Part shown: positions 2,611 through 40,430 of the stretch, piece by piece | Layout: each line of letters opens with the position of its first letter | Position numbering within the stretch: the first letter of the stretch is position 1 | Source of the DNA: a virus | Strand: one strand, 5' to 3' | DNA: 40,430 nt | Virus record (IMG/VR): IMGVR_UViG_3300025297_000002 | Position numbers and translations under genes: made by a program | Notes under the pieces: generated by a model | Databases searched by the model: none | Told to the model about the DNA's origin: nothing | Seen by the model: the letters and a program-made list of their open reading frames with translations, nothing else

Positions 2611-3455
2611 TAGAACAGCCTCCCGCTGTTGAGGCGCTGAATTGCCAGGGCGAGCAACTGGCGCTGTTGGTCGGCGGCCTGGGGGTCGATTGGCGATACT
2701 GGCGCGGGGGCGTCGAGGCGCGCCGCCGCGACCGGCGCGGAGTGCATGGCACCACCACCGCCACCACCGCCCGAGCTGTAGGCGTCGCCCATCGCCGACA
2801 GGCCTTCGCCCAGGGCGGAGAGCAAACCTTTCTTCTTTGGCGCTGCCGGGGCCGCTCCAGGCGTTCCGGCTTGCCCGGCCATGGTCGAGGCCAGGGCGTT
2901 GCGCCCGCCCGCCAGAGGCGGCTGCATGGCCGGATTAACAGGGTCCGAACCGTAGCCGCCGCCTGCGGCCTCGACAGGGCCTTGCGGGCGCGTCGAGTAG
3001 CCGGCCGGCACAATGCGCTCGTCGCCCTTCGGGCCATCCATGACGGGCGGCGCGCCGCCGTAGGGTGCGGGCGCATCGCCGGGGCGGCGGCTGATGCCTT
3101 CGAAGCCGGTAATCCCCTTGGCCTTCGCGCCGTACCATTGGCCCCAGCCCTTTTGCGAGGCCTCGTTAAGGGCGTAGTCGACGCCGCCCTGCCAATTCTC
3201 GCGCGGATCGATGCCGGCGGCGAGCGCGCGGTCACCCAGGCCGGCCCCGGTGCCGCTGATGTAGAGCTGAAACGGGCCGAACGAATTTTCGAGCGCGCCG
3301 AAGGTCCGCAATTGGCTGCGCGGGGCCTTCCCCTCGCCATGACGGAAGGGGTTGAAAAGCCCGCCCTCGCCGGTCGCAACCGTCACCGCGACATCGGGGT
3401 CGACGCCGTAGAGGGGTGCGCGCTGGCGGATATAGGCTTCAACCGGGCTGACCAT
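2610..3455 (-). CDS. Internal virion protein with a soluble lytic transglycosylase (SLT)-like domain
   Basis: N-terminus ...VATGEGGL...ENSFGPFQLY...YAL.. resembles the SLT catalytic Glu and GLMQ-type motifs. GGAGG RBS. Same position as T7 gp16 / P22 ejection proteins. Confidence 0.75.
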   Translation of the reverse strand: MVSPVEAYIRQRAPLYGVDPDVAVTVATGEGGLFNPFRHGEGKAPRSQLRTFGALENSFGPFQLYISGTGAGLGDRALAAGIDPRENWQGGVDYALNEASQKGWGQWYGAKAKGITGFEGISRRPGDAPAPYGGAPPVMDGPKGDERIVPAGYSTRPQGPVEAAGGGYGSDPVNPAMQPPLAGGRNALASTMAGQAGTPGAAPAAPKKKGLLSALGEGLSAMGDAYSSGGGGGGGAMHSAPVAAARLDAPAPVSPIDPQAADQQRQLLALAIQRLNSGRLF

Positions 3456-3815: not shown

Positions 3816-4745
3816 CTACAGGAACGGCAAGGCGCTAAGGAACGAGCCGCCCAGGCCGAAAATGCCCTGGTTGGTCGCGTTGGCCGCTTGCACTTGGTTC
3901 TGGTAATTCTGGCTGATGTAGTCGCCGACAGGGGCCGCGTTGATGCCCTGGCGCGAAAACGGCGAGAATTGCGGGATGGTGACTTGGCCCATGCCCATCA
4001 GCGCCGCGATCTCGTTCGGCAGCTCGGCGCGCAAGGCCGTGTCGCTCTGTTGCTGGGCCTGCCGAAGCTGGTTGCCGAAGCCGGCATAATCCGCGCCCAT
4101 CTGATACTTTTGCAGGGCGGCCTGGTTATAGGCGTTTTGGGCCGCGCGGCTCTCATCGCCGGAAGCCAGATAGGCCTGATTGGTGGCGTCGGTGAGCGCC
4201 CGCTGGCGGGTGTCGTCGACCGACGAATATTGCGCCGAGCCGGGGGTGAGGCCGCGCGCGGCGAGCTGCGCATCCTGGGCCGCGTTCTGCTTGCCCGAGG
4301 TTTCGAGATAGCGGCTCATCATCGCTTGCTGGACGGCGTTCCGGTCGGTCGGGGCCTGATCCTGGCGCACCTCGCCGGGGGCCTGGGCCATCTGCCACGA
4401 TTGCCACTTGCTCGGGTCGAGCTGGGTCTTGAACATATCGGCGAGCTGCGACGAGGCAGTCACCGCCGCTTGCCCGGCGTTGCCCTTGGCCTGGGTTTCC
4501 AGGCCGAGCAATTTCATTTGATCGGGCGACAGCGACGTGGTGCGCGTGTAGCGCGGCACATATTGCGGCTTGCCCTTGGCGTCATAAACGACCTCGTAGC
4601 CGGAATTTTGATAGTTCACCGAGCCGTAGGGATTGACCTCATTCGGGTTGTTGATGATGCCCGAGGCCGCAGACGCGCCCAGGTCGGAAGCCTGTTGCGC
4701 GGCGGCCTGATCGTAGGGATTGGGCGGCTTAGGAGTGGAGGCCAT
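3816..4745 (-). CDS. Q/A-rich virion-module protein (309 aa)
   Basis: Internal ATG at 4745 (MASTPKPPNPYD...) with a GGAGAA RBS. The upstream 65 codons of the track ORF are Arg/Ser-rich and overlap the GNAT gene. Confidence 0.6.
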   Translation of the reverse strand: MASTPKPPNPYDQAAAQQASDLGASAASGIINNPNEVNPYGSVNYQNSGYEVVYDAKGKPQYVPRYTRTTSLSPDQMKLLGLETQAKGNAGQAAVTASSQLADMFKTQLDPSKWQSWQMAQAPGEVRQDQAPTDRNAVQQAMMSRYLETSGKQNAAQDAQLAARGLTPGSAQYSSVDDTRQRALTDATNQAYLASGDESRAAQNAYNQAALQKYQMGADYAGFGNQLRQAQQQSDTALRAELPNEIAALMGMGQVTIPQFSPFSRQGINAAPVGDYISQNYQNQVQAANATNQGIFGLGGSFLSALPFL

Positions 4746-13581: not shown

Positions 13582-15068
13582 CAGTTCAACTCGTGCAGCT
13601 TGAAGGCGTTCGCGATGAGGTACGGATTGCGTTCCTCTCGGGTCGCGGCGATGGCGCGGTAGGGCCTCGACAGGCAGGCGTAGCGGGCATCGTCAACGGC
13701 GTGATCTTCGGCGTCGGTGTCGAGGTCTTCGGGCCGGTGCGCGTCGTGCTGCATCATCGGCAGGGTGCGGATGAGATCGCGGCAATCCTCGGTGAAGAAA
13801 ATCATCGGCTCGCCGTCCGCGTTGCCGACGAGGCGGGCGCGCAACTGATCCCAGCCGCCCATGCGCTTATCGCGGCTCGTGCGTTGATTGTCAGCGCGCC
13901 GGAAGATCGCCCCAGCTCGGCCCAAAACCTCGCCAATCGACGGGCCAGAGATCACCGCGAAGGCGGCCGGGTCGAGCACGCCGTAAGCGATGCGTTCGCG
14001 CTGGCCGTCGATGGTTTCACGGGAAACGATGCCAGCGCCCACGACCTCGGCCGGCAGCTTCAAGCCGACGTTCGGCTTGCCGCGTTCCATGCCGTACCAC
14101 TCGCGATATCGGACAATCGCGCCGCGCGGCAGCAGGCGGCCGGCGTGCTCGGTGTCGTCCTGCACGACGGTCCACCACCCGACCGAAAACGGCTTGGCAG
14201 AGCCCCAGTCCATCGACCGGAAGCGGGTCCACCAATTCGGGATTTGCAGGCGCGGGATGATGTGTCGGGCGGTCGAAAACTCGCCGAAGAAAGCGCCCTC
14301 GATGACGTTCCAATCGCCCTCCAGCCACGCCCGCACCAATTCGGACGAGCCCGAGGCTTTCAGCTTGTTGACGTAGCCAGGATCGTTTTCCAGTAGCTTC
14401 GGATTGTCGGCGAGGCGCGACGGAATGAAGATGCGAACGAGGCCGTTTTCAGGGTCTTTGAACGGGGCATAGGGGCCGATATCGATGGCCCAGGCCTTCA
14501 CCCAGTTATGGCCGGGGCCGCCTGGGTTGCACGTCGCGCGAAACTGGCACGGAATGCCGAGGGTCGAGCGAAGCGTTGCCAGGAGCTTCATGATCGGCCC
14601 AGGCATCGCGTATTGCGTCAGCTCCTCGACGTAGACGCGGGTCAAGCTCCAGCCCTGGTAATTCTGCGCGTCCTGGTCGCTTTCGAGGTAGGCGCACGTA
14701 AGCCGGCCGCCGTTCGCCATCTGGAAATAGCCGCCCTTTTCCTTCCATTGGGCGGCAGCGCCAAACATCTGCATGGCGGTTTGAATGGTGTCGCGGAGGT
14801 CTTCGCGGGTCTTGCGCACCATGAGGCCACGAGCGCCCGAGCCGTAGGTTTCCGAGTGTATCCACCATTCGCCGAGCGAACCGTGGGTCTTGCCGCCACC
14901 GCGAGCGCCGCCGAAAATCACGATGTCGGCCGGGCAGTCGACGAAGGCCTGTTGCGGCCCGGCCTGGGGCACAAAGCCGATCTCGACCATCCGCTGTTGC
15001 CGCACATGGAAGGTATCCGGCTTAGGCGGCGGCAACGGTTTGACGGTCGGCTGCGCGGCGTCCTTCAT
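13581..15068 (-). CDS. terL: Terminase large subunit (495 aa)
   Basis: ATGA overlap with the terS stop at 15065-68. Walker A-like GGARGGGKTHG. Nuclease-half motifs ...SMDWG...VLDPA. Confidence 0.9.
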   Translation of the reverse strand: MKDAAQPTVKPLPPPKPDTFHVRQQRMVEIGFVPQAGPQQAFVDCPADIVIFGGARGGGKTHGSLGEWWIHSETYGSGARGLMVRKTREDLRDTIQTAMQMFGAAAQWKEKGGYFQMANGGRLTCAYLESDQDAQNYQGWSLTRVYVEELTQYAMPGPIMKLLATLRSTLGIPCQFRATCNPGGPGHNWVKAWAIDIGPYAPFKDPENGLVRIFIPSRLADNPKLLENDPGYVNKLKASGSSELVRAWLEGDWNVIEGAFFGEFSTARHIIPRLQIPNWWTRFRSMDWGSAKPFSVGWWTVVQDDTEHAGRLLPRGAIVRYREWYGMERGKPNVGLKLPAEVVGAGIVSRETIDGQRERIAYGVLDPAAFAVISGPSIGEVLGRAGAIFRRADNQRTSRDKRMGGWDQLRARLVGNADGEPMIFFTEDCRDLIRTLPMMQHDAHRPEDLDTDAEDHAVDDARYACLSRPYRAIAATREERNPYLIANAFKLHELN

Positions 15069-15517
15069 TGCAGCGGCTCGCCAGGAAGACGCGGCACAAA
15101 TTTCTCGCGCCACTCATCCATCGTCATTTGCCGCTGTTCGGTCGGCTCACGCGCCGGCTTGCGCACGGTCGCGTCGACCTCGGCCTTGTCGACGATGAGG
15201 CCCAACAGCTTGGCCTTTGCCAGGACGGCACCAACACCGGCGGCCGGGTGCTTCATGCGCTTGGCGAGCTTGGCGAAATCATCCAGCTCGGCGACGAGCT
15301 GATCGACCGTCACGCCGATGCGGCGGGCTTGGTTGTCCTGCAATTCGGCGATGCGCGCCGCGATCTCGGGCTTGCGCGCCAGGGTGCCAGCATTCGAGCG
15401 AACATCGTTCGGCTTGCCCTTGGCGTAACCGGCGTAAATGTAGGCGTCATGGTTGCTCTTGCCCTTGGCGACGGCCTGGGCAAAGCGCTCGTGGCGTGGG
15501 TGCGGTAGGAGCGGCAT
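15065..15517 (-). CDS. terS: Terminase small subunit (150 aa)
   Basis: N-terminus PRHERFAQAVAKGKSNHDAYIYAGY... is typical of Terminase_2-type small subunits. Immediately upstream of terL. Confidence 0.75.
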   Translation of the reverse strand: MPLLPHPRHERFAQAVAKGKSNHDAYIYAGYAKGKPNDVRSNAGTLARKPEIAARIAELQDNQARRIGVTVDQLVAELDDFAKLAKRMKHPAAGVGAVLAKAKLLGLIVDKAEVDATVRKPAREPTEQRQMTMDEWREKFVPRLPGEPLQ

Positions 15518-15669
15518 CCTGGCCCCTGCTTTTGAAGGCTGATTGCGCCTTCATAGACCAAAACGCCGGGTTTTTAAAATAGCTCCTAAGCCGGATTGCG
15601 TGTCATCCGGCGATTACTTTCCTATTCAAGTATAACTGCCAGCAGGGATGATTGGCGGGGTGCTGTAGC
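15518..15669 (-). promoter_or_regulatory. AT-rich non-coding gap upstream of terS with two hairpins (pac-site / internal late promoter candidate)
   Basis: On the minus strand: GCCGGA-N10-TCCGGC, then an AT-rich stretch ATTTTAAAAA, then TGAAGGC-N7-GCCTTCA just before the terS RBS. Confidence 0.3.
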
Positions 15670-15855
15670 TCAATGCTCGGTGGCTATGGTGCGTTCAAAG
15701 CATGGCAGGCAGATTTTTTTCGTGTCCTGGGGCATGTAGGGCCGGATACGAACGGTCTGCCCGCACTTGTGGCAAACGCCGAAAGCGTCGTCATCGAAAT
15801 AGGCCCTGCCCAGGGTCACCGGCATGCAAACGACAATCGTCTCATCGTCGCTCAT
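15670..15855 (-). CDS. Small Zn-ribbon-like protein (61 aa)
   Basis: ATGA junction at 15852-55. Cys/His pairs in ...GVCHKCG...ICLPCF. Confidence 0.6.
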   Translation of the reverse strand: MSDDETIVVCMPVTLGRAYFDDDAFGVCHKCGQTVRIRPYMPQDTKKICLPCFERTIATEH

Positions 15856-16073
15856 AGCCAAGTTTCAACAATCTTGGGGTCGTCGGTCGGGTGCCGGTCG
15901 AGCTTCACAAGCCCTTGCTGGGCGAAATGTTCGCGCAGCGCGTCGAGCGAAACGCTCGCCAGGACATGCGCGGTCGGCTTGTCGTTGATGAACAGCCGCG
16001 CGGCGTAGGTGTCGGGGAAATCGGCCGGGTGATCGTAAATCGTCCAGATAGGCAGGCCCTGGGGCTCGGTCAT
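15852..16073 (-). CDS. Hypothetical protein (73 aa; PIWTIYDHPADFP-type)
   Basis: Track ORF with an ATGA junction. Confidence 0.6.
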   Translation of the reverse strand: MTEPQGLPIWTIYDHPADFPDTYAARLFINDKPTAHVLASVSLDALREHFAQQGLVKLDRHPTDDPKIVETWL

Positions 16074-16330
16074 TGGAGCTTCCGTTTGCAGGCCACCTTG
16101 AGCGACCGGGGATCATCGGGGCGGCCGGCGGTGGTCACCACCGAGCGCAAGCCACAATCCAGGCACTCGACAACGAAGTGCCCGCACCGCTTGGCAGGAT
16201 AGGGCAACGGCGTCGAGCATGCCGGTTCAACGCCGGCCGAGGCGTCAATGTCGACGCCCTCGGGGAACGCCGGATTAGGCCGATTTTGCGGCCAGCGGTT
16301 GCCGTCGACCCATTCGATTTTTGCCCTCAT
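16070..16330 (-). CDS. Hypothetical Cys-containing protein (86 aa)
   Basis: ATG at 16330 forms an ATGA junction with the upstream stop. The track start at 16342 is TTG. Confidence 0.55.
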   Translation of the reverse strand: MRAKIEWVDGNRWPQNRPNPAFPEGVDIDASAGVEPACSTPLPYPAKRCGHFVVECLDCGLRSVVTTAGRPDDPRSLKVACKRKLQ

Positions 16331-16506
16331 AGGCCCCACCAATTTTTCGCCACCACGACGCCGAAGACGATGCCGGCGAGATAGACCACGGCAGCGCAGA
16401 GGTACAATTCGCGCTCGATATAGGTCACGCGCTTATGCAGGCGCTCGACGCGGCGCATCCGGTTCTCAAGCTCGGCCTGGGCCAGCGCCAGCTCGGCCTC
16501 GGTCAT
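16327..16506 (-). CDS. Small membrane protein (59 aa): N-terminal coiled coil, C-terminal TM helix
   Basis: ATG at 16506 (MTEAELALAQ...) forms an ATGA junction. C-terminus LCAAVVYLAGIVFGVVVAKNWW. Confidence 0.55.
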   Translation of the reverse strand: MTEAELALAQAELENRMRRVERLHKRVTYIERELYLCAAVVYLAGIVFGVVVAKNWWGL

Positions 16507-16610
16507 TTCCGGCGCTCCAGGCGCTCGACGCGGCGGGTGAGCTTGTAGAGCCAAACGGCATTGGCGAGGCCGCTCACGGCGAGCAAGAGCAGCAACAGCG
16601 TTGTTATCAT
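16503..16610 (-). CDS. Micro-ORF (35 aa): N-terminal TM helix plus a basic tail (MITTLLLLLLAVSGLANAVWLYKLTRRVERLERRK)
   Basis: My own translation; below the 60-aa track cutoff. ATGA junctions at both ends. Confidence 0.5.
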   Translation of the reverse strand: MITTLLLLLLAVSGLANAVWLYKLTRRVERLERRK

Positions 16611-16687
16611 CGCCGGATCACCGGGGCCGCCGTTTGAGCGAGTTTGCCGGCCTTCACGAGCACCGGCTTGATGTAGGGTTTTTTCAT
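16607..16687 (-). CDS. Micro-ORF (26 aa): MKKPYIKPVLVKAGKLAQTAAPVIRR
   Basis: My own translation. GGAGG lies 8 nt upstream of the ATG. ATGA junction to the next micro-ORF. First ORF after the terminator. Confidence 0.45.
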   Translation of the reverse strand: MKKPYIKPVLVKAGKLAQTAAPVIRR

Positions 16688-16700
16688 GGGTCGAGCCTCC

Positions 16701-16740
16701 AAAAAAGGGGCGCGGCTCAATCGGCAGAAAGACCGCGCCC
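16701..16740 (-). terminator. Intrinsic terminator preceding the late operon
   Basis: Minus strand: GGGCGCGG-(17 nt loop)-CCGCGCCC followed by CTTTTTT. Confidence 0.6.
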
Positions 16741-16747
16741 AGGTGTC

Positions 16748-16916
16748 ACCGGGTTAGAAACGTTGCCCCGGTAAGAGGTCGCGACGGCGAGGCCGTGGGG
16801 CAAGGAGGGGGGTCCAAGTCGCCCCGTCTCCTCGCCGTCGCTTCGCCCACTGATCGGCCCCAACGTCCCGGCGTTTTTCCTTGGGGGGACTGGCCGCCGG
16901 GAAATCTCCCGATCAG
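16748..16916 (-). ncRNA. Structured non-coding leader / candidate cis-regulatory RNA (three hairpin domains)
   Basis: No ATG on either strand. Stems: 16850-57/16909-16 enclosing 16867-73/16895-901; a perfect 12-bp stem 16781-92/16830-41; and 16748-53/16767-72. Confidence 0.4.
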
Positions 16917-17149
16917 TTGGCGATTTTGGGCTCTGAGGGCCATTCCAGGCCGCCATCAGAGCGCTTTGGTATGCGTTGCGCCGCCTGGACGTAGCCGCCG
17001 TAGAAAGCGACGTTGTAACGCTCCCGGCAGCTCGTGTTGGCGCACTCAATGTTGATCGAAATCCCGCCCTGTGGCCCGATGACAAAACCGCGCCGCGAGC
17101 ATGTCGGACAGTTGCCCCGATTTAGGTCTGACAGCTCGCTTTCCTTCAT
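16913..17149 (-). CDS. Zn-ribbon protein (78 aa)
   Basis: CPTC...C..SC motifs. ATGA junction. Last gene before the structured leader. Confidence 0.6.
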   Translation of the reverse strand: MKESELSDLNRGNCPTCSRRGFVIGPQGGISINIECANTSCRERYNVAFYGGYVQAAQRIPKRSDGGLEWPSEPKIAN

Positions 17150-17649
17150 TGGCGTGTCGGCCTCGAATATCGGCCCTCGTCGTCCCTGTGAACGTCATTG
17201 GACTTCTGGAGGTAGTAGAGCGCGTTCTGGAGGTCTTTCCGCGCCTTGCCGATTGGGATGCCGAAATAGTTGCCCAGCTCACTTGCCGTCATCGGCTCGG
17301 CGTCGGCCTCGTCGAGTAGAGCCTTGACCTTTTCGCGCCACCCTGCCCGAGCGCTCATGTTGCGGGGCTTTTTTTCCTTCTTTCGGCCGGTCGGCCCCTT
17401 CTCGGCCGGCGGGCCGTCCTCGGTGGTCTTTCGCACGATCAGCACCGGCTTTGCATGCGAGCCGTTCATGAGCGTCGAGGGCGGCGGCTCGTGCCTGGAA
17501 TGGGCGGCCATCTGGTCGGCCTCGTCGAGGCTCATGAGCACTCGCCGGGTGTCCTCCAGGCGGGCTATCTCGACTTGTAGCGCGGCGATCTGCTGCCGGC
17601 GCTGGGTGATCTCGCCATCAAGGCGTCTAAGGGTTGCTTGGTTGCTCAT
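17146..17649 (-). CDS. Coiled-coil plus C-terminal winged-helix-like protein (167 aa), putative regulator
   Basis: N-terminal heptads (LRRLDGEITQRRQQIAALQVEIARLE). C-terminus ...MTASELGNYFGIPIGKARKDLQNALYYLQK. Confidence 0.5.
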   Translation of the reverse strand: MSNQATLRRLDGEITQRRQQIAALQVEIARLEDTRRVLMSLDEADQMAAHSRHEPPPSTLMNGSHAKPVLIVRKTTEDGPPAEKGPTGRKKEKKPRNMSARAGWREKVKALLDEADAEPMTASELGNYFGIPIGKARKDLQNALYYLQKSNDVHRDDEGRYSRPTRQ

Positions 17650-17978
17650 CGCTTTCTCCTGGGGGCCACGGCACCGGCCCTGATCACCGTTTCGTAGCCG
17701 AGCGCGCCGAGTGTTCCGGCGATTGTCGAGAAACGGGGAAAGCGGGTCTTGCCACCGGCAAGGTTCGACGCTGTCGAGGGGCTCATTGCCGCCGCACTCG
17801 CAACGTCCTTGTACTTTAGTCCAGACTGCTTAAGCAGGCCGGCGGTGAATTGAACGTAGTCGCCGCTGTCGATGAAATGAAACTCGCCTGGAGTATCCGA
17901 AGCATCGCGGCCTCGGGTTGTGGCAGCATCTTCAACTACAGGGCGGCGGCGACGCATCGATCTAGCGTCTCGGGACAT
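17646..17978 (-). CDS. HTH (XRE-like) DNA-binding protein, paralogue A (110 aa)
   Basis: ...YKDVASAAAMSPSTASNLAGGKTRFPRFSTIAGTLGALGYE. ATG at 17978 (the track start at 17981 is TTG). Confidence 0.6.
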   Translation of the reverse strand: MSRDARSMRRRRPVVEDAATTRGRDASDTPGEFHFIDSGDYVQFTAGLLKQSGLKYKDVASAAAMSPSTASNLAGGKTRFPRFSTIAGTLGALGYETVIRAGAVAPRRKR

Positions 17979-18247
17979 CAAACACGCTCCTGGGCGTACA
18001 TATCCCAGCCGAGCGCGCCCAGTATGCGGATGATCGTTCTTAGGCGGGGGTGCTGGGTGGCCCCGGATGCGATGTTGCCGACTGTCACGGCGCTAACATC
18101 GGCATCGACGGCGATCTTCTGATAGTTCGCGCCGGCTCGCCAGATTTCAGACTGCACTAGGGCTACAGTCTTAGGACCATCGTCTATCTTAATGATCCGA
18201 CCTTTGTTGACGCTTAGTACATTAGAACGTGCTGAAGTTGCTGTCAT
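17978..18247 (-). CDS. HTH (XRE-like) DNA-binding protein, paralogue B (89 aa)
   Basis: ...YQKIAVDADVSAVTVGNIASGATQHPRLRTIIRILGALGWD aligns with paralogue A. GAGGG RBS. Confidence 0.6.
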   Translation of the reverse strand: MTATSARSNVLSVNKGRIIKIDDGPKTVALVQSEIWRAGANYQKIAVDADVSAVTVGNIASGATQHPRLRTIIRILGALGWDMYAQERV

Positions 18248-18321
18248 CGTTGCTTACCCTCTGTTGGCTTTCCTCATACCCGCCGCCGCCCACGTTCCCA
18301 AATCAACCGGCGAACGGCAGC

Positions 18322-18349
18322 AAACTAACTAAACGTGGTTGCGAGTCAA
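18322..18349 (-). promoter_or_regulatory. Candidate promoter TTGACT-N16-TAGTTT, with an AACGTGGTTGC motif filling the spacer
   Basis: AT-rich 147-nt gap after the endolysin. Hexamers read on the minus strand. The motif is shared with the attP region. Confidence 0.35.
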
Positions 18350-18394
18350 CCTTTTGAAGTCCGGGTTAATTTAGTCCACAACAAACCGTTAAAA

Positions 18395-19102
18395 TCAGGC
18401 CGCCAACGCTTTGCCATTGATCAAAACATTCACTCGGGCATCTGCTGGGGCGGAAATTGAAATGCTGATCTCGGGTCCAACAGATTTGGCGGGGTCGTCG
18501 GTCGCGGGCGACAGAAACCTACGGCAGGCATCATCCGAGCCGTTGAAGCGGTTGCTGTCGACGCCGGCAGCGATGCCGGGCACGGTGGCCTTGTCGGTCC
18601 ATTGCCAGAGCGACCACACCGGCCACGTTGCTTTCGGCCAGCTCGGGCCTTTGGCGCTCGTGTAGTGCGCAATCCAGAGCGACGTGAAGTCGGCCAGGAG
18701 CTGTTCACGGTCATTGCCGAGATCGCTCTTGAGCTTGCCGCCGCCGTAAACCGTGATCTGGAGATTGAACGGCTGGCGCACGAGCGCTTGCACGGCGTCG
18801 ACTAGGTCGGCCAGGGTGCAAGCCTCGTCCTCGTAATCGATCACCACGCGCTCGCCCTTCACCGGGTGCAGCACGTCGAGGAAATTCAGCATCTGCTGCT
18901 CGGCTTGGCCGTGCTTGAGAAAGTGGTAGCCGACGACAGCCAGGCCGGCGGCCTGGGCGCGCTCGCGACGCGGTGCAAAGGTCGGGTCGATGTAGCCGGT
19001 GCCCTCGGTCGCTTTCAGGATCACGCCGACGAGGCCGGCGCTTCTGAGCCGCACGAAATCGGGCTCGGGATTGTGGTGCGATAGGTCGATGACGGGGTCC
19101 AT
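18395..19102 (-). CDS. Endolysin, GH25 muramidase family (235 aa)
   Basis: VIDLSHHN...GVILKATEG..YIDP...GYHF...D.E... is the typical GH25 (Glyco_hydro_25) layout. GGAGG RBS. Confidence 0.8.
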   Translation of the reverse strand: MDPVIDLSHHNPEPDFVRLRSAGLVGVILKATEGTGYIDPTFAPRRERAQAAGLAVVGYHFLKHGQAEQQMLNFLDVLHPVKGERVVIDYEDEACTLADLVDAVQALVRQPFNLQITVYGGGKLKSDLGNDREQLLADFTSLWIAHYTSAKGPSWPKATWPVWSLWQWTDKATVPGIAAGVDSNRFNGSDDACRRFLSPATDDPAKSVGPEISISISAPADARVNVLINGKALAA

Positions 19103-19111
19103 TCGTGCCTC

Positions 19112-19666
19112 CTACTGCGGCGTTGAGCTGGCGATTTCAGAGTTGGGGATTTCCTCGCCCTGCTGTTGCGAGGCCGTGAAAGCGAAATCCATCAGCAAGT
19201 CCGACACGGTGCCGCCGCGCCCAAACTTGAGATTGGAGATCAGGCCGAAGTCGTGCAGCGCGCCGCAACCGGGGCACTTGGGCGACATGATCAGCGCGCC
19301 ATAAAGGCCCAGGCTGCGCGCCTTGGAGAGCACCGCATGCACGGCGGCTTGCGTCTCGGGCGAGCCGGAGATTTGGTGGTCCCGGTCGGCGACCATGCAA
19401 GGCTCACGGTGCGCGGTCTTGACGCTCACCGAGCCGCCCAGGCGGTCGGTTTCAGCGCCAGCGATCACGAAAGCATGCTGGAGCAACGCCGCGCCGCTCT
19501 CGGCCATCCTCTCGCCGTCTTCGAAGGTCGACAGCCACTTGCCGACGATCTCGGTCAAGGCGGTTGAGATCACCGGCATGCTTTCGCCCAGCGGACCCTC
19601 GGCGCGGAAAAGATCGCCGATTTTGTTGGTGAGCGCTTGGATGCGCTGATGTTCTTGCTCGGTCAT
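19112..19666 (-). CDS. Hypothetical protein (184 aa)
   Basis: Track ORF with an ATGA junction. Confidence 0.55.
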   Translation of the reverse strand: MTEQEHQRIQALTNKIGDLFRAEGPLGESMPVISTALTEIVGKWLSTFEDGERMAESGAALLQHAFVIAGAETDRLGGSVSVKTAHREPCMVADRDHQISGSPETQAAVHAVLSKARSLGLYGALIMSPKCPGCGALHDFGLISNLKFGRGGTVSDLLMDFAFTASQQQGEEIPNSEIASSTPQ

Positions 19667-19854
19667 GGTTCACCCTCTCGTTGCTTCACTTCGGTTGCCC
19701 GCCAGCCCTTGCCGACGAAATAGGCCCGTAGCCAGTCCTCGCCTTTGCCGATGGCCCATTTCAAGATCGGCGCGGCCTCGGTGCATCGCCCGTCGACCAT
19801 CACCAGGGCGGCGACGAAATGCGGGGCCACCACCCGGATTAGGCGCTCGCTCAC
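19663..19854 (-). CDS. Hypothetical protein (63 aa, GTG start)
   Basis: GTGA junction with the upstream stop at 19851-54. VSERLIRVVAPHFVAALVMVDGRCTEAAPILKW... The rest of the track ORF upstream is Arg-rich and overlaps the TM protein gene. Confidence 0.5.
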   Translation of the reverse strand: MSERLIRVVAPHFVAALVMVDGRCTEAAPILKWAIGKGEDWLRAYFVGKGWRATEVKQREGEP

Positions 19855-20039
19855 GGCATCTTTGCCCTGATCGCGATGATGAGCACGAGCAAGGTGATCG
19901 CCGAGCCGGCGCAAGCGCCCACGGCGAGGCCGAAGACGAAGCCGGTGCGCCACGCTTCCATCATCGCCTTGCGCAGGCCAGCGGCCAGCTCGTGGCGCGG
20001 CGGCGGTTCGTAATCTGGCGGTGCCATGTGGCGGGTCAC
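19851..20039 (-). CDS. Small membrane protein (62 aa, one TM helix)
   Basis: FVFGLAVGACAGSAITLLVLIIAI. GTGA junction (alternative ATG at 20027). Confidence 0.55.
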   Translation of the reverse strand: MTRHMAPPDYEPPPRHELAAGLRKAMMEAWRTGFVFGLAVGACAGSAITLLVLIIAIRAKMP

Positions 20040-25517: not shown

Positions 25518-25662
25518 ATCTGTGCAATTGCCGAATGACCCTGTTTTACGATATTCTCCTTAACGACCCTGCATTTGCATGGTTCGGTGTCGCTGGGAAA
25601 AATGGGGATTAAATTTTTTTTGGCGGCACTGTGGACAACGGCCTAACGAGGGGGGTTCCTCA

Positions 25663-26127
25663 ATGGCAAAGTCAGAAATGGAAGACGAAACGACACACGC
25701 GCGCGCCAAGCATGATGTCGTCCATTACATAAGAGAATGGCGCACTCACCGAGGCCTGACGGTTGACGGCCTGGGCGAGGCGGCCGGGATATCCGGCTCA
25801 ATGGTGTCGCAACTCGAAAGAGGGCGCACGACTTACACGCAAACCACCCTGCAAAAGATAGCGGAAGCATTGAATGTACAGCCTTGGAAGCTATTGGCCG
25901 CCGGCCCCGATGAAGATCAAAGATTGTGGACTGTAGTTCTTCAATCCAGCTTGCCAGAGATCGGCCTGGACCTCGACGAGGCTGGGAAAAACATCGTCTC
26001 GATGCTGATTTCTAACAATTACCGCGCAGCAATTCGGTCGGCCTGTTCGATCTTCGGCAAGGGCATCGTGCCCGATTTCGACGCCGACGAGTTCACTTTC
26101 AAATGGGAAGGCGGGCCGGGCGGTTAA
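25663..26127 (+). CDS. CI-like XRE-family repressor (154 aa)
   Basis: ATG at 25663 with a GAGGGGGG RBS. ...REWRTHRGLTVDGLGEAAGISGSMVSQLERGRTTYTQTTLQKIAEAL. No S24 peptidase motif seen. Confidence 0.7.
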   Translation: MAKSEMEDETTHARAKHDVVHYIREWRTHRGLTVDGLGEAAGISGSMVSQLERGRTTYTQTTLQKIAEALNVQPWKLLAAGPDEDQRLWTVVLQSSLPEIGLDLDEAGKNIVSMLISNNYRAAIRSACSIFGKGIVPDFDADEFTFKWEGGPGG

Positions 26128-29837: not shown

Positions 29838-29990
29838 CAGTTTGTCGACGATGCCGGGCAACCGGCGCGGGGCAGTGGGTCGCTCCCACAAAGCAGCGGC
29901 TTCCGAGTAGTAGGGCACCGCCAGGAGATAGGCCCCTGGAAGGAGGCCCCGGAAATCGTCCTTCATGTGAAGCTGTCGTCGACAGGGAAA

Positions 29991-30016
29991 GGGCCGCTCT
30001 CGGGCGGCCCTTTTCT
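29991..30016. terminator. Bidirectional terminator between the convergent plus-strand early operon and the integrase operon
   Basis: GGGCCGC-tctcgg-GCGGCCC flanked by an A-run and TTTT. Confidence 0.6.
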
Positions 30017-30203
30017 ACTTCTGCACCACCACGGCAAGGAACCGAATATGATCGGCCTCTTGCTTGTCGAGGATTTTGCGGTGGCTTCGACCCAGGCCGC
30101 GCGACTGCCAAACCGTGGCCCAGTTGTCGGTCGAAAAGAACACGCGCCCGTCGACCATTTCGAGCGTCTCGCGTTTTGGCTTCGGTGCCGTGCTGCGCTT
30201 CAT
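30015..30203 (-). CDS. Hypothetical protein (62 aa), last gene of the integrase operon
   Basis: ATGA junction at 30200-03. Confidence 0.5.
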   Translation of the reverse strand: MKRSTAPKPKRETLEMVDGRVFFSTDNWATVWQSRGLGRSHRKILDKQEADHIRFLAVVVQK

Positions 30204-31310: not shown

Positions 31311-31560
31311 GGTTTTCTTCCTTTGTTGCCATGAGGTCGGGGTCGATCTCGATTTCGTCGATGCCGTAGTTTTCGGCGACCAAGCGCCCGGCCTGGGTCG
31401 CCAGGGCTCGGCCGATGTCGCCACCGCAAACCATCGCCATGCACTTCTCATGACCTCTTTGCGGCCCTCGGGCGAGGATCAGGGACACGGTCCAGCCGTG
31501 CCCCCAATCTTCTCTCACCCGGCGGATGATCACCTTTTCGGTGATGGTGACGGCGTCCAT
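31282..31560 (-). CDS. Hypothetical protein (92 aa)
   Basis: TAATG junction with the integrase stop. Overlaps the next gene by 29 nt. Confidence 0.5.
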   Translation of the reverse strand: MDAVTITEKVIIRRVREDWGHGWTVSLILARGPQRGHEKCMAMVCGGDIGRALATQAGRLVAENYGIDEIEIDPDLMATKEENHDRNFAAQR

Positions 31561-32840
31561 TACGCCGCCGCCTTCAATTCGATGACATTCGAGCTGGTCG
31601 CAAACTCGCCCCAGGCCTGGAGGAGCGACCGGCGCGCGTCGAGCATTTCGTCGCGGTCATAGGCGCGCTGCACCTTGGTCCCGATGACGTGGCCCAGGGC
31701 CAGCTCGGCGGCCTTCTCGTCGAGCTTCCGAGCCGAAACCCAGGTGCGGAACGTGGCGCGCATGCCGTGCGGCGTGGCCTTGCCGCCCAGGCCCAGGCCG
31801 CCCTTTGCAACCGGGTCGATCAGCTTGTCGCGCAGCGCGCCCTCGTTCACCGGCTTTTCGCCGCCCAGGCCCCAAAACACGAAATCCGACAGCGCCGACT
31901 TGTGGCAGCTTTCGAGCACCGCCACGGCGGCATCCGACAGCGGCACGATATGCTCGCCGTTCTGCGCGTCGCCGTTGTCGCTCTTGTTGCGCTCGGCCGG
32001 CACGACCCAGGTCCGCGACTTGAGGTCAATTTCCGACCACCGAGCACCGCGCGCCGCATCGGTGCGAACGGCGGTGAGCGTGGCGAAAGCCAGGGCCTTG
32101 GCCGCGTTGCCATTCTTCGGGCCGATCAGCTTGCGGATCACGGCCGGCAGCTCGGCATAGGGCAGCGAGGCCTGCTTGCGCTTGGCGGCGGTGTCGCGCT
32201 TGCCCAGGAGCTGTTCGATATGGGCATCGAAGCGAGCCGGGTTCGGGCCGACATGCAGGCCGCGAGCAATGGCGAGATCAAGCACGGTTTCGACGCGAAC
32301 GCGAACGCGCTCGGCGGTGACATGGATGTCGTTCCAAATCGGCTTGAGCACCTTGACCACGTCATCGGTCGTGATGGTCGAGGCGCGCTTGATCAGCAGC
32401 GAACCGGCGTGGTTCTTGAGCGAATTGCGCCACTCGTCTTCCTGCTGGCACTTGCCGCCCTTGACCTTCCAATCGCTGCGCTTGGTGCCGTCGCCCTTCT
32501 CGCGCTTAATGACCTCGTCGAGCAACTCGGCGAACGTCACCGAGCCGGCCAGGGCGGCGCGCTTGGCGGCAATCTTGGCCTCGACCGGGTCGACGCCCTG
32601 CGACAGCGACAGGCGGGCGGCATCGGCGCGCAAGCGGGCCTCGGTAATGCCGACAGCGAAGGCCGCGCCAGCGCCGGTGTAAGAGCCCAGGCCCAACTCA
32701 CGCTGCTTGCCATTGGCGGCGCGATAGATGAAAAGCCAGGACTTCGCGCCGGTGGCCGACACGAGGAGATAAAGGTTGCGCCCGTCGCTGTAGCGGCCGG
32801 CCTTGAGGTTGCCATTGATGAATGCGGTGGTGAGCTTCAT
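31560..32840 (-). CDS. int: Tyrosine recombinase / phage integrase with a DUF4102-type N-terminal arm-binding domain (426 aa)
   Basis: N-terminus ...GRYSDGRNLYLLVSATGAKSWLFIY...GKQRELGLGSY. C-terminus ...HGMRATFRTW...LGHV...AYDR. Confidence 0.9.
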   Translation of the reverse strand: MKLTTAFINGNLKAGRYSDGRNLYLLVSATGAKSWLFIYRAANGKQRELGLGSYTGAGAAFAVGITEARLRADAARLSLSQGVDPVEAKIAAKRAALAGSVTFAELLDEVIKREKGDGTKRSDWKVKGGKCQQEDEWRNSLKNHAGSLLIKRASTITTDDVVKVLKPIWNDIHVTAERVRVRVETVLDLAIARGLHVGPNPARFDAHIEQLLGKRDTAAKRKQASLPYAELPAVIRKLIGPKNGNAAKALAFATLTAVRTDAARGARWSEIDLKSRTWVVPAERNKSDNGDAQNGEHIVPLSDAAVAVLESCHKSALSDFVFWGLGGEKPVNEGALRDKLIDPVAKGGLGLGGKATPHGMRATFRTWVSARKLDEKAAELALGHVIGTKVQRAYDRDEMLDARRSLLQAWGEFATSSNVIELKAAA

Positions 32841-39984: not shown

Positions 39985-40430
39985 TTGAACATGCCGGCCG
40001 CTCCCGCACCGGCGGCCTTTCCCGCCTCGCGCTCCAGCGATTGCTGCATCATGAGCCGCGCGAGCTGCGCCCTCGTCGGCACCATCTGAAACGGCATTGC
40101 CGGTTGACGGGCGAGTGAGCCCGTCGAGATCAGCCGCACCAAGTCATCGCCCGCATCTTCCGACATCCGATCAGCGGCCATCCTGGCGGCTTTGCCGGCC
40201 CCGTAGAGCGCGCCCGAGCCGCCCAGGCCGACAAGTGCCGCCGTGGTCGGTTCTGCCCCGTGTAGGAGCGCGCCCAGGCCGCCAGCGCTGCCCAGGATGT
40301 TGCCCTGCACACCAGCCATAGGCCCCGAGCCGCCGAAGCGGTTGCCGAAGCTGCGCAGCATGTTTTGAACCGGCGAGCCCTCGACCACCCTTTCCATCTG
40401 CCCCAGCTCCTCGGGCGAGTAGGGATTGAA
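39981..40430 (-). CDS. C-terminal part of the 548-aa Gly-rich ejection protein whose start is at 1324 (wraps through the circular junction)
   Basis: In phase with 1..1324 once the 127-nt overlap is collapsed: (1324+323)/3 = 549 codons. The track ORF 39981..40397 is only the piece after an internal Met. Confidence 0.75.
   Translation of the reverse strand, partial: FNPYSPEELGQMERVVEGSPVQNMLRSFGNRFGGSGPMAGVQGNILGSAGGLGALLHGAEPTTAALVGLGGSGALYGAGKAARMAADRMSEDAGDDLVRLISTGSLARQPAMPFQMVPTRAQLARLMMQQSLEREAGKAAGAGAAGMFN
40304..40430. repeat. Terminal overlap copy 2, identical to 1..127
   Basis: Exact 127-nt match to the window start. Its position inside a CDS argues for assembly circularisation rather than physical genome ends. 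Confidence 0.95.

Follow-up and report, generated by a model that had tools for sequence, protein, structure and literature searches.

Three conserved hairpins and a terminator form a non-coding RNA between the regulator and late genes of a temperate phage from metagenomes

RNA elements acting on terminators and the present locus

The put elements of phage HK022 (putL and putR) are cis-acting RNAs that render RNA polymerase terminator-resistant (PMC9378689). Structured, orientation-specific leaders of 100–450 nt, cis-acting on downstream terminators, are represented by conAn2 of pLS20 (with the protein ConAn1), canT of Tn916 and EAR of B. subtilis (PMC8191782, PMC11658703). In put, conAn2 and canT, the RNA modifies the polymerase and is effective at a distance (PMC9378689, PMC8191782, PMC11658703). 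BrrG is a Q-like GTA regulator of Alphaproteobacteria (Bartonella) (10.1101/2024.11.20.624540). Small RNAs with C-rich loops that bind Shine-Dalgarno (SD) sequences are a known class (PMC2790875, PMC3961350).

The element described here lies in a stretch of 40,430 nucleotides (IMG/VR record IMGVR_UViG_3300025297_000002), hereafter the window. The window constitutes a complete, circular phage genome of about 40 kb; its first 127 bases recur at the end as a terminal overlap. The G + C content is about 63%. The phage is temperate, with a tyrosine integrase gene (31560–32840) and a cI-like XRE repressor gene on the plus strand. The minus strand carries nearly all other genes. The group to which the phage belongs is rare, and the phage of the window is known only from metagenomes. 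The element is a non-coding minus-strand RNA of about 215 bases, located between regulator and late genes and composed of three conserved hairpins (HP1, HP2 and HP3) and a terminator. It has two modules: M1, formed by HP1 and HP2 (16921–16781), and M2, formed by HP3 and the intrinsic terminator (16772–16701). RNAs that make polymerase ignore terminators are known only from a few mobile elements (put, EAR, conAn2, canT), and none is known from high-GC alphaproteobacteria-like temperate phages.

As with HK022 put, two adjacent conserved stem-loops are located in a temperate phage transcript with a terminator downstream, and no antiterminator protein can be recognised. An effect at a distance, as in put, would explain why ORFs are tolerated between M1 and M2. 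The put element, however, is about 70 nt long and made of two simple stem-loops, whereas M1 has 132–147 nt, with a nested, possibly pseudoknotted HP1 and a two-tier HP2. Two copies of put are located downstream of early promoters; M1 is present in one copy, at the early/late boundary. Judged by size, sequence and copy number, M1 falls outside the put family. With conAn the likeness is the pairing of an RNA with a small protein encoded just upstream, a role that the gene for the Zn-ribbon protein or that for the 167-aa protein could have here. conAn2, canT and EAR differ in belonging to Gram-positive conjugative elements with several terminators along long operons; the present locus has a single terminator in a high-GC phage, with no sequence or protein homology to them and no match to EAR in Rfam.

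The gene order resembles that of the lambdoid Q/qut/tR' (6S RNA) and BrrG systems, in which the last regulatory gene is followed by a short terminated leader and then by the late genes. Q depends on a sigma-70 promoter that contains a Q-binding element, together with a pause site shortly upstream of the terminator; by a crude consensus scan, none was found here. Q also requires a protein of the Q fold. None was found among the upstream proteins, and the remark of the initial annotation that no Q-like gene is recognisable agrees with searches of Pfam, PHROGs and NCBIfam and of the PDB by sequence and by fold. The leader RNA of Q systems, moreover, has no conserved structure, unlike the present one. 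Staphylococcal Rsa RNAs and the alphaproteobacterial CCUCCUCCC 'cuckoo' RNAs also have hairpins that expose conserved C-rich loops (PMC2790875, PMC3961350), but the Rfam models CcsR1 and mmgR score at chance level here (E ~5). As in C-rich-loop RNAs, pairing by a loop is the mode of action of the P1 c4 and P4 CI immunity RNAs, which are excised from an operon transcript and pair through a loop to ribosome-binding or leader sequences. Unlike all of these, the locus has no known processing site, and statistical support for its proposed cI target is weak.

Structure and conservation of the element

Four stems had been placed in this region by the initial annotation. Every coordinate matched the sequence, and all four elements are present in the minimum free energy (MFE) fold of the minus strand of 16688–16920 (−122.2 kcal/mol, z = −4.73, none of 200 shuffles equally stable). 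The plus strand of the same region is less exceptional than the minus strand (z = −2.91). The stretch is, as had also been remarked, free of ATG on either strand: 229 bases contain 0 ATG/CAT vs 4.7 expected, and just 11 of the 4021 genomic windows of this size (0.3%) lack ATG.

HP1 (16921–16847, minus strand) consists of an outer stem, an inner stem and a C-run loop. In the outer stem, CUGAUCGG (16916–16909) pairs with CCGAUCAG (16857–16850); the UGA of the Zn-ribbon gene is located in the 5' arm, and one pair covaries, U-A to C-G. The inner stem (16901–16895 with 16873–16867) differs in sequence among lineages A, E, B, C and D, with 6–9 bp always formed. Its versions are CCCGGCG/CGCCGGG, CCGGCC/GGCCGG, CGGGGCG/CGCCUCG, GCGGGGUG/CGCCCUGC and GCGGGGCCG/CGGCCUCGC. 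The C-run of the loop is CCCCCCAA (16888–16881). The 3' strand GUUGGGG (16864–16858) is invariant. GUUGGGGCC, on the 3' side of HP1, hardly varies and is able to pair with the loop C-run as a pseudoknot. Such a pseudoknot (CCCCAA/UUGGGG) had been suggested earlier: the pairing is possible in every lineage (3–6 bp), but covariation neither supports nor rejects it because the GGGG strand never varies.

HP2 (16841–16781, minus strand) consists of a lower stem, an internal loop, an upper stem and an apical loop. The lower stem has 12 bp (16841–16830 with 16792–16781). Above a 4x4 internal loop, an upper stem of 7 bp is also formed (16825–16819 with 16803–16797; 6–8 bp across lineages). Folded alone, HP2 has z = −6.34. 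The apical loop UGGACCCCCCUCC, of 13 nt, is nearly invariant and is the most conserved sequence of the element; it resembles the 3' end of 16S rRNA. The loop core UUGGACCCCCCUCCUU (16817–16802) is identical in six of the seven distinct variants, the exception being L170, with CCGCC. In five pairs of HP2 both partners have changed, and HP2 retains a G-U pair that would become a mismatch on the opposite strand. Masking of the ribosome-binding site (RBS) of the next ORF in cis by the HP2 loop was rejected: the downstream SD sequences differ by lineage, with only 4–5 nt pairable by inspection.

HP3 (16772–16748, minus strand) is a small hairpin located 5–6 nt upstream of the terminator, with the stem 16772–16767 paired to 16753–16748. 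The hairpin is present in all six lineages with altered stems (CCGGG/CCCGG, CAGGG/CCCUG, GCGCGAGG/CCUUGUGC). The loop reads GCAACGUUUCUAA in lineages A (window included), B and D; lineage C has AUAAGUUUCUGA, and in lineage E (L173) the loop is reduced to GCUAA. Since lineage E keeps only GCUAA, the loop sequence is dispensable. A sequence-specific site or seed in this loop was rejected on the same ground and because matches to its complement in the genome are no better than chance.

The intrinsic terminator (16740–16701, minus strand) has the arms GGGCGCGG (16740–16733) and CCGCGCCC (16715–16708), separated by 17 unpaired-or-loop bases and followed by C and U6 (16706–16701). The stem has 8 perfect G-C pairs at its base and 10–12 pairs in the predicted fold. 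All six lineages have an intrinsic terminator here, formed by a GC stem of 10–12 bp, which differs in sequence each time and covaries, and U4–U7; in all six it is directly upstream of the next ORF or gene block. A consensus terminator scan, which admits loops of ≤8 bases only, missed this terminator for that reason alone. In a scan allowing larger loops, no other clean intrinsic terminator came up anywhere along the minus strand of the genome. The RBS GGAGG (16700–16696) of the 26-aa micro-ORF, thought earlier to follow about 6 nt past the terminator, in fact adjoins the U-tract directly.

Relatives were collected by contig look-ups and by pattern scans of viral, genome and metagenome collections with the HP2 and HP3 loops. 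The element occurs in six diverged lineages of one rare metagenomic phage group, in which the Zn-ribbon proteins are 78–99% identical. Lineage A includes the window, L001, L033 and L170; lineage B, L002–L005 and L171; lineage C, L006–L008, L032 and L167–L169; lineage D, L039 and L181; lineage E, L173. The pattern scans gave mostly chance matches; the new true copies were only L032, L033, L039 and L181, and the matches L018–L031, L034–L038 and L040–L162 are unrelated to the element. The scan of the genome collection with both loop patterns gave no true match. No match was obtained by blastn of the region against 50,697 phage records of GenBank, and no second copy of M1 was found in the complete genome with the covariance model R1.

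Every lineage folds alike. M1 is 132–147 nt long and begins at the Zn-ribbon stop codon in all lineages. In the M1 alignment, 99.2% of cells are paired and 6 pairs are changed on both sides. None of 500 shuffles was as good, and with slid partners pairing drops to 31–55%. At the DNA level, conservation of M1 (73–85%) is on a par with that of adjacent coding sequence (77–84%) and exceeds that of the 167-aa gene (72–75%). Retained G-U pairs, which on the opposite strand would be mismatched, indicate selection on the minus-strand RNA. The spacer between M1 and M2 varies: it is absent in A and D, a micro-ORF in B and E, and an unrelated ORF of 71 aa in C. The spacer ORFs have 30–71 codons, and their stop codons all fall in the HP3 loop. 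Rather than a single indivisible leader, the element is a pair of separable modules, HP1 with HP2 and HP3 with the terminator, with an ORF between them in three lineages.

The view of the region as a non-coding structured RNA held up: the structure is specific to the minus strand, compensatory changes occur in relatives, and these contain no conserved coding frame, with indels that are not multiples of three. A protein-coding gene was rejected (no ATG; 1- and 2-nt indels scattered among close relatives). In the window, the frame past the Zn-ribbon UGA is open, by inspection, until a UAA in the HP3 loop. Extension of, or read-through from, the Zn-ribbon gene is ruled out by 1–2-nt indels in close relatives and by an in-frame stop in L039. 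No tRNA or tmRNA was found. The whole window has 0 matches at the gathering thresholds of Rfam 15, ribozymes, riboswitches and EAR included; in 16400–17200 the best match has E = 0.23 (eukaryotic miRNA models), every score being far under threshold. The element is a new RNA motif, conserved and supported by covariation, with no counterpart in Rfam.

Gene neighbourhood and transcription

The minus-strand gene order begins with a GH25 lysin (19102–18395), followed by two small HTH proteins, the 167-aa protein (17649–17146) and the Zn-ribbon protein (17149–16913). A gap of 225 nt separates the Zn-ribbon gene from a 26-aa micro-ORF and several small ORFs, after which come an AT-rich gap of 150 nt, terS, terL and the portal gene. 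Neighbouring regulator genes share 4 nt with one another, which makes the 225-nt gap unusual. M2 is located exactly where the early/regulatory genes give way to the block leading to terS, terL and the structural genes.

The Zn-ribbon protein has 78 aa, and the UGA stop of its gene (16915–16913) is within the 5' outer arm of HP1. The gene accompanies M1 in every close relative. Its homologues at 52–62% identity are found in other gene contexts, where M1 is absent, and only 13 clusters occur among 5.8 billion proteins. The structure model (pLDDT 88.7) has no significant match in a PDB fold search. The 167-aa protein is kept in all M1-bearing lineages. It is predicted to consist of a coiled coil, a K/R-rich disordered linker and a generic winged-HTH-like C-terminus; a PDB fold search with its model, of low confidence, gave nothing significant. 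The arginine-rich N-terminus SRDARSMRRRRP of the 111-aa HTH protein is conserved in lineages A, B and E. In lineage C an unrelated gene takes the place of the gene for this protein, and both M1 and M2 are retained.

A candidate promoter of the regulator operon, TTGACT (18349–18344)-N16-TAGTTT (18327–18322), is visible by inspection on the minus strand upstream of the first HTH gene. It is kept in three lineages and was not called by the consensus promoter scan. A transcript starting there would cross four regulator genes, then HP1, HP2 and HP3, and then the terminator. Given the conservation of this candidate, the leader is most simply taken as the downstream end of the regulator-operon transcript. 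By the crude consensus-match scan, no sigma-70-like promoter was called in 14000–20000, including the interval from the terminator to the downstream genes.

The 26-aa micro-ORF (MKKPYIKPVLVKAGK..., 16687–16607, minus strand) is the first ORF after the terminator. Its peptide is conserved through synonymous changes. In L002 and L173 it is located between HP2 and HP3, whereas in lineage A, unlike B and E, the micro-ORF comes after the terminator. The AT-rich non-coding block at 15518–15669, just upstream of terS, is highly conserved and could carry a separate late promoter or a packaging site. The initial statement that all genes of the late operon depend on read-through is therefore too strong.

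Antitermination and other readings of the element

M1 is tentatively read as the RNA half, acting in cis, of a switch for antitermination at M2, a reading held at less than even confidence. Transcription from the candidate promoter at about 18349–18322 would run on past the genes of the regulator operon into the leader. Once transcribed, M1 would fold on the nascent RNA and bind the elongating RNA polymerase, either alone or with the 78-aa Zn-ribbon protein or the 167-aa coiled-coil/winged-HTH protein; joint action is the more probable. The polymerase carrying M1 would become resistant to M2 and read through it. Early transcripts would stop at M2 and yield proteins, and later transcripts would pass, with late expression following the accumulation of the regulator-operon products. 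HK022 put, pLS20 conAn and Tn916 canT follow the same logic (PMC9378689, PMC8191782, PMC11658703). We infer both the influence of M1 on termination and the involvement of a protein partner.

Such an antitermination leader fits best because there is a single terminator at the boundary, no promoter-like site after it, and upstream a constrained RNA that tolerates intervening ORFs. Structure, strand, positions, conservation, covariation, the conserved terminator and the lack of a called promoter or of a second minus-strand terminator are all observed. As in the functional class of antitermination leaders, a conserved, orientation-specific RNA is located in the same transcription unit as an intrinsic terminator and upstream of it. 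The tolerance of an ORF of 30–71 codons between M1 and M2 fits a polymerase-modifying RNA that acts at a distance. Several points weigh on the other side. The phage is known from metagenomes only. With only one terminator to overcome, processivity would be unneeded. If the RNA acted alone, all transcripts reaching M2 would already carry M1, and there is no evident logic without a protein or timing step. No upstream protein resembles a known antiterminator or matches an annotated family in Pfam, PHROGs, NCBIfam, PDB sequence or PDB fold searches. Compared with put, M1 is about double in size, has no sequence in common and is present in a single copy per genome. A riboswitch-type mechanism, with alternative pairing of M1 to the terminator, is unlikely: ORFs of 30–71 codons intervene in three lineages, the terminator arms vary and the M1 loops are constant.

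The nearly invariant C-rich loop of HP2, similar to the 16S rRNA 3' end, would be expected of a base-pairing seed and so counts against antitermination. On the corresponding rival reading, an option already raised in the initial annotation, M1 would be a discrete small RNA, whether or not M2 forms its 3' end, that comes from the 3' portion of the regulator-operon transcript and has C-rich anti-SD seeds: the loops of HP2 (UGGACCCCCCUCC) and HP1 (CCCCCC/CCCCUC) would block translation of targets, the best of which in the phage is the RBS of the cI-like gene. This is judged unlikely. The HP2 loop is indeed the most conserved sequence, the HP1 loops are C-rich in every lineage, and the order HP1-HP2-HP3-terminator in lineages A and D is a typical small-RNA layout; an ORF separates M1 from the terminator in three lineages, however, the loop of L170 reads CCGCC, and neither an own promoter nor a processing site was found. 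As to the target, the loop pairs over 11 contiguous positions with GAGGGGGGUUC in the SD region of the cI-like gene (ATG at 25663; −23.8 kcal/mol), which ranks best of 153 sense-strand translation-start regions, but composition-matched shuffled loops equal this match in 32 of 400 trials (8%). Loop and cI site are both conserved in L173, on one contig, and the site also in L174. Both are invariant and hence give no covariation, and the conservation of the site is unspecific since the whole upstream region of cI is conserved at 86%. That M1 is released from this transcript and its HP2 loop, as a mimic of the 16S rRNA 3' end, pairs with the unusual G6 SD of the cI-like mRNA (25646–25658), shutting off repressor synthesis, is quite doubtful. 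If true, the leader at the early/late terminator would contain an RNA anti-repressor that acts once the middle operon fires and locks in lytic development. Also judged unlikely is that M2 is the plain terminator of the regulator operon and M1 a 3'UTR or intercistronic element of mRNA fate, with late genes transcribed from a promoter near terS. M1 could then be an RNase III-type site, an exonuclease barrier or an autoregulatory binding site of the Zn-ribbon or 167-aa protein. T7 and lambda have RNase III processing sites, and HP2, with its lower stem, internal loop and upper stem (about 20 bp stacked), is shaped like such phage signals. HP1 overlaps the Zn-ribbon stop codon and accompanies that gene in every case. 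The ORF that, in lineages B, C and E, ends in HP3 just before the terminator resembles an ordinary gene end, a point also against antitermination. The strongly conserved AT-rich block before terS could hold an independent late promoter, in which case M2 would be an ordinary operon end. Yet a processing or stability hairpin needs neither a nearly invariant 13-nt apical loop nor an invariant GUUGGGG strand; this reading would leave no promoter for the five or six small genes that separate M2 from the AT-rich block, and no sigma-70-like promoter is called in 14000–20000.

Two further readings are less probable. In phage lambda, protein N binds boxB, and boxA has a consensus sequence. A nut-like site, at which a small basic protein would bind a nascent hairpin and recruit Nus factors through a boxA-like sequence so that polymerase passes M2, is very unlikely here. 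The arginine-rich N-terminus of the 111-aa HTH protein would suit such a role and a terminator follows, but lineage C keeps M1 and M2 with another gene in place of that protein. The boxA-like CGCUCUUUC, directly after HP2, is found in L002 only; its window counterpart is CCUCUUAC, and the sequence is not conserved. Nor is the HP3 loop conserved, and HP1 and HP2 far exceed boxB hairpins in size. That the inverted repeats are a double-stranded DNA site (operator, packaging or origin) or chance GC-rich palindromes is highly improbable. The region is GC-rich, and a DNA site for a symmetric protein would likewise keep inverted repeats. The stems, however, are nested, with loops of 15–36 bases; G-U pairs are kept where the other strand gives A-C mismatches, the HP1 inner stem is wholly rewritten with pairing retained, and the fold (z = −4.7, no shuffle as stable) is conserved in six lineages.

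The concept of antitermination is already known, and the clade is small. Under either the antitermination or the small-RNA reading, the element is a new conserved RNA motif, with a narrow known range of six lineages, all metagenomic. It provides a compact, covariation-supported candidate at the sole early/late terminator of a complete phage genome, and through a small reporter construct the timing of late genes in this phage group becomes directly testable. If M1 instead acts as a small RNA on the repressor RBS, the lysis-lysogeny decision of these phages would have an extra RNA layer.

Small reading frames and stop codons around the leader terminator

Conserved micro-ORF, located at 16607–16687 in the window and at ~845–940 in contig L173 (minus strand in both), and at 3386–3492 in contig L002. 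The encoded peptide, KKPY[IV]KP.LVK.GK...AAGHP, is 26–35 aa in length and conserved, with synonymous changes in the DNA. We take its N-terminus to resemble RiPP or lasso leader motifs. In lineage A, which includes the window, the micro-ORF lies 3' of the terminator; lineages B and E have it in the interval from hairpin HP2 to hairpin HP3, and lineages C and D lack it. With its position varying in this way and two lineages without it, it behaves like a small mobile cassette. Immediately 3' of it in the window is a 35-aa ORF (16503–16610, minus strand) with a hydrophobic N-terminus (MITTLLLLLLAVSGLANAVW...), which is not present in L001, whose neighbouring genes are 99% identical. The comparison indicates a very recent insertion or deletion.

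ORFs inserted between M1 (hairpins HP1 and HP2, after the Zn-ribbon gene stop) and M2 (HP3 and the intrinsic terminator) are of two unrelated kinds. In all three lineages having such an ORF, its stop codon is held in the HP3 loop (~3490 in L002, ~845 in L173, ~6777 in L032), 12–20 nt upstream of the terminator stem. The arrangement may represent ordinary gene-end compaction or a coupling of translation to termination at the terminator.

A 16-mer identical to the C-rich HP2 loop occurs at 4092–4107 of L018, an unrelated low-GC phage contig, where it makes up the 3' arm of a plain GGGGGGAGGGGUC/GGACCCCCCUCC hairpin that precedes a terminase-like region. The match is due to chance and does not mark a homologue.

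Regulator operon and repressor start

The regulator operon probably has its promoter and operator at 18322–18380 (minus strand). The promoter-like TTGACT-N16-TAGTTT is kept in three lineages, along with a conserved block 5' of it, GGACUAAAUUAA.CCGGACUUCAAA. The 111-aa HTH protein (17646–17981, minus strand) has an arginine-rich N-terminus, SRDARSMRRRRP, that recalls N-type RNA-binding motifs. Lineages A, B and E keep this N-terminus, but in lineage C an unrelated gene stands in place of the HTH gene.

The probable start codon of the cI-like (XRE) repressor, on the plus strand, is ATG 25663 rather than the first ATG of the ORF (25579). Its Shine-Dalgarno sequence, GAGGGGGG, is unusual (Shine-Dalgarno/start region 25646–25665). 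G6 runs are scarce on the sense strands of the genome; a 62-aa ORF at 30203 (minus strand) has another, 9 nt 5' of its ATG.

Second terminator, block upstream of terS and genome closure

The sole clean intrinsic terminator in the genome besides that of M2 is GGGCCGCUCUCGGGCGGCCC followed by UUUU (~29970–30011, plus strand), which closes the plus-strand repressor/recombination operon. Directly upstream of the terminase gene terS is an AT-rich non-coding block (15518–15669, minus strand), which hardly differs between lineages A and B and whose conservation exceeds that of the flanking genes. A CCGGAU...AUCCGG hairpin lies within it, as does a UAUUUUAAAAA run, and the block is a candidate for a late promoter or for a cos/pac site.

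The window is a circularly closed assembly and a complete phage genome of ~40.3 kb, since its first 127 bases (1–127) recur exactly at its end (40304–40430); the late operon therefore spans the window ends.
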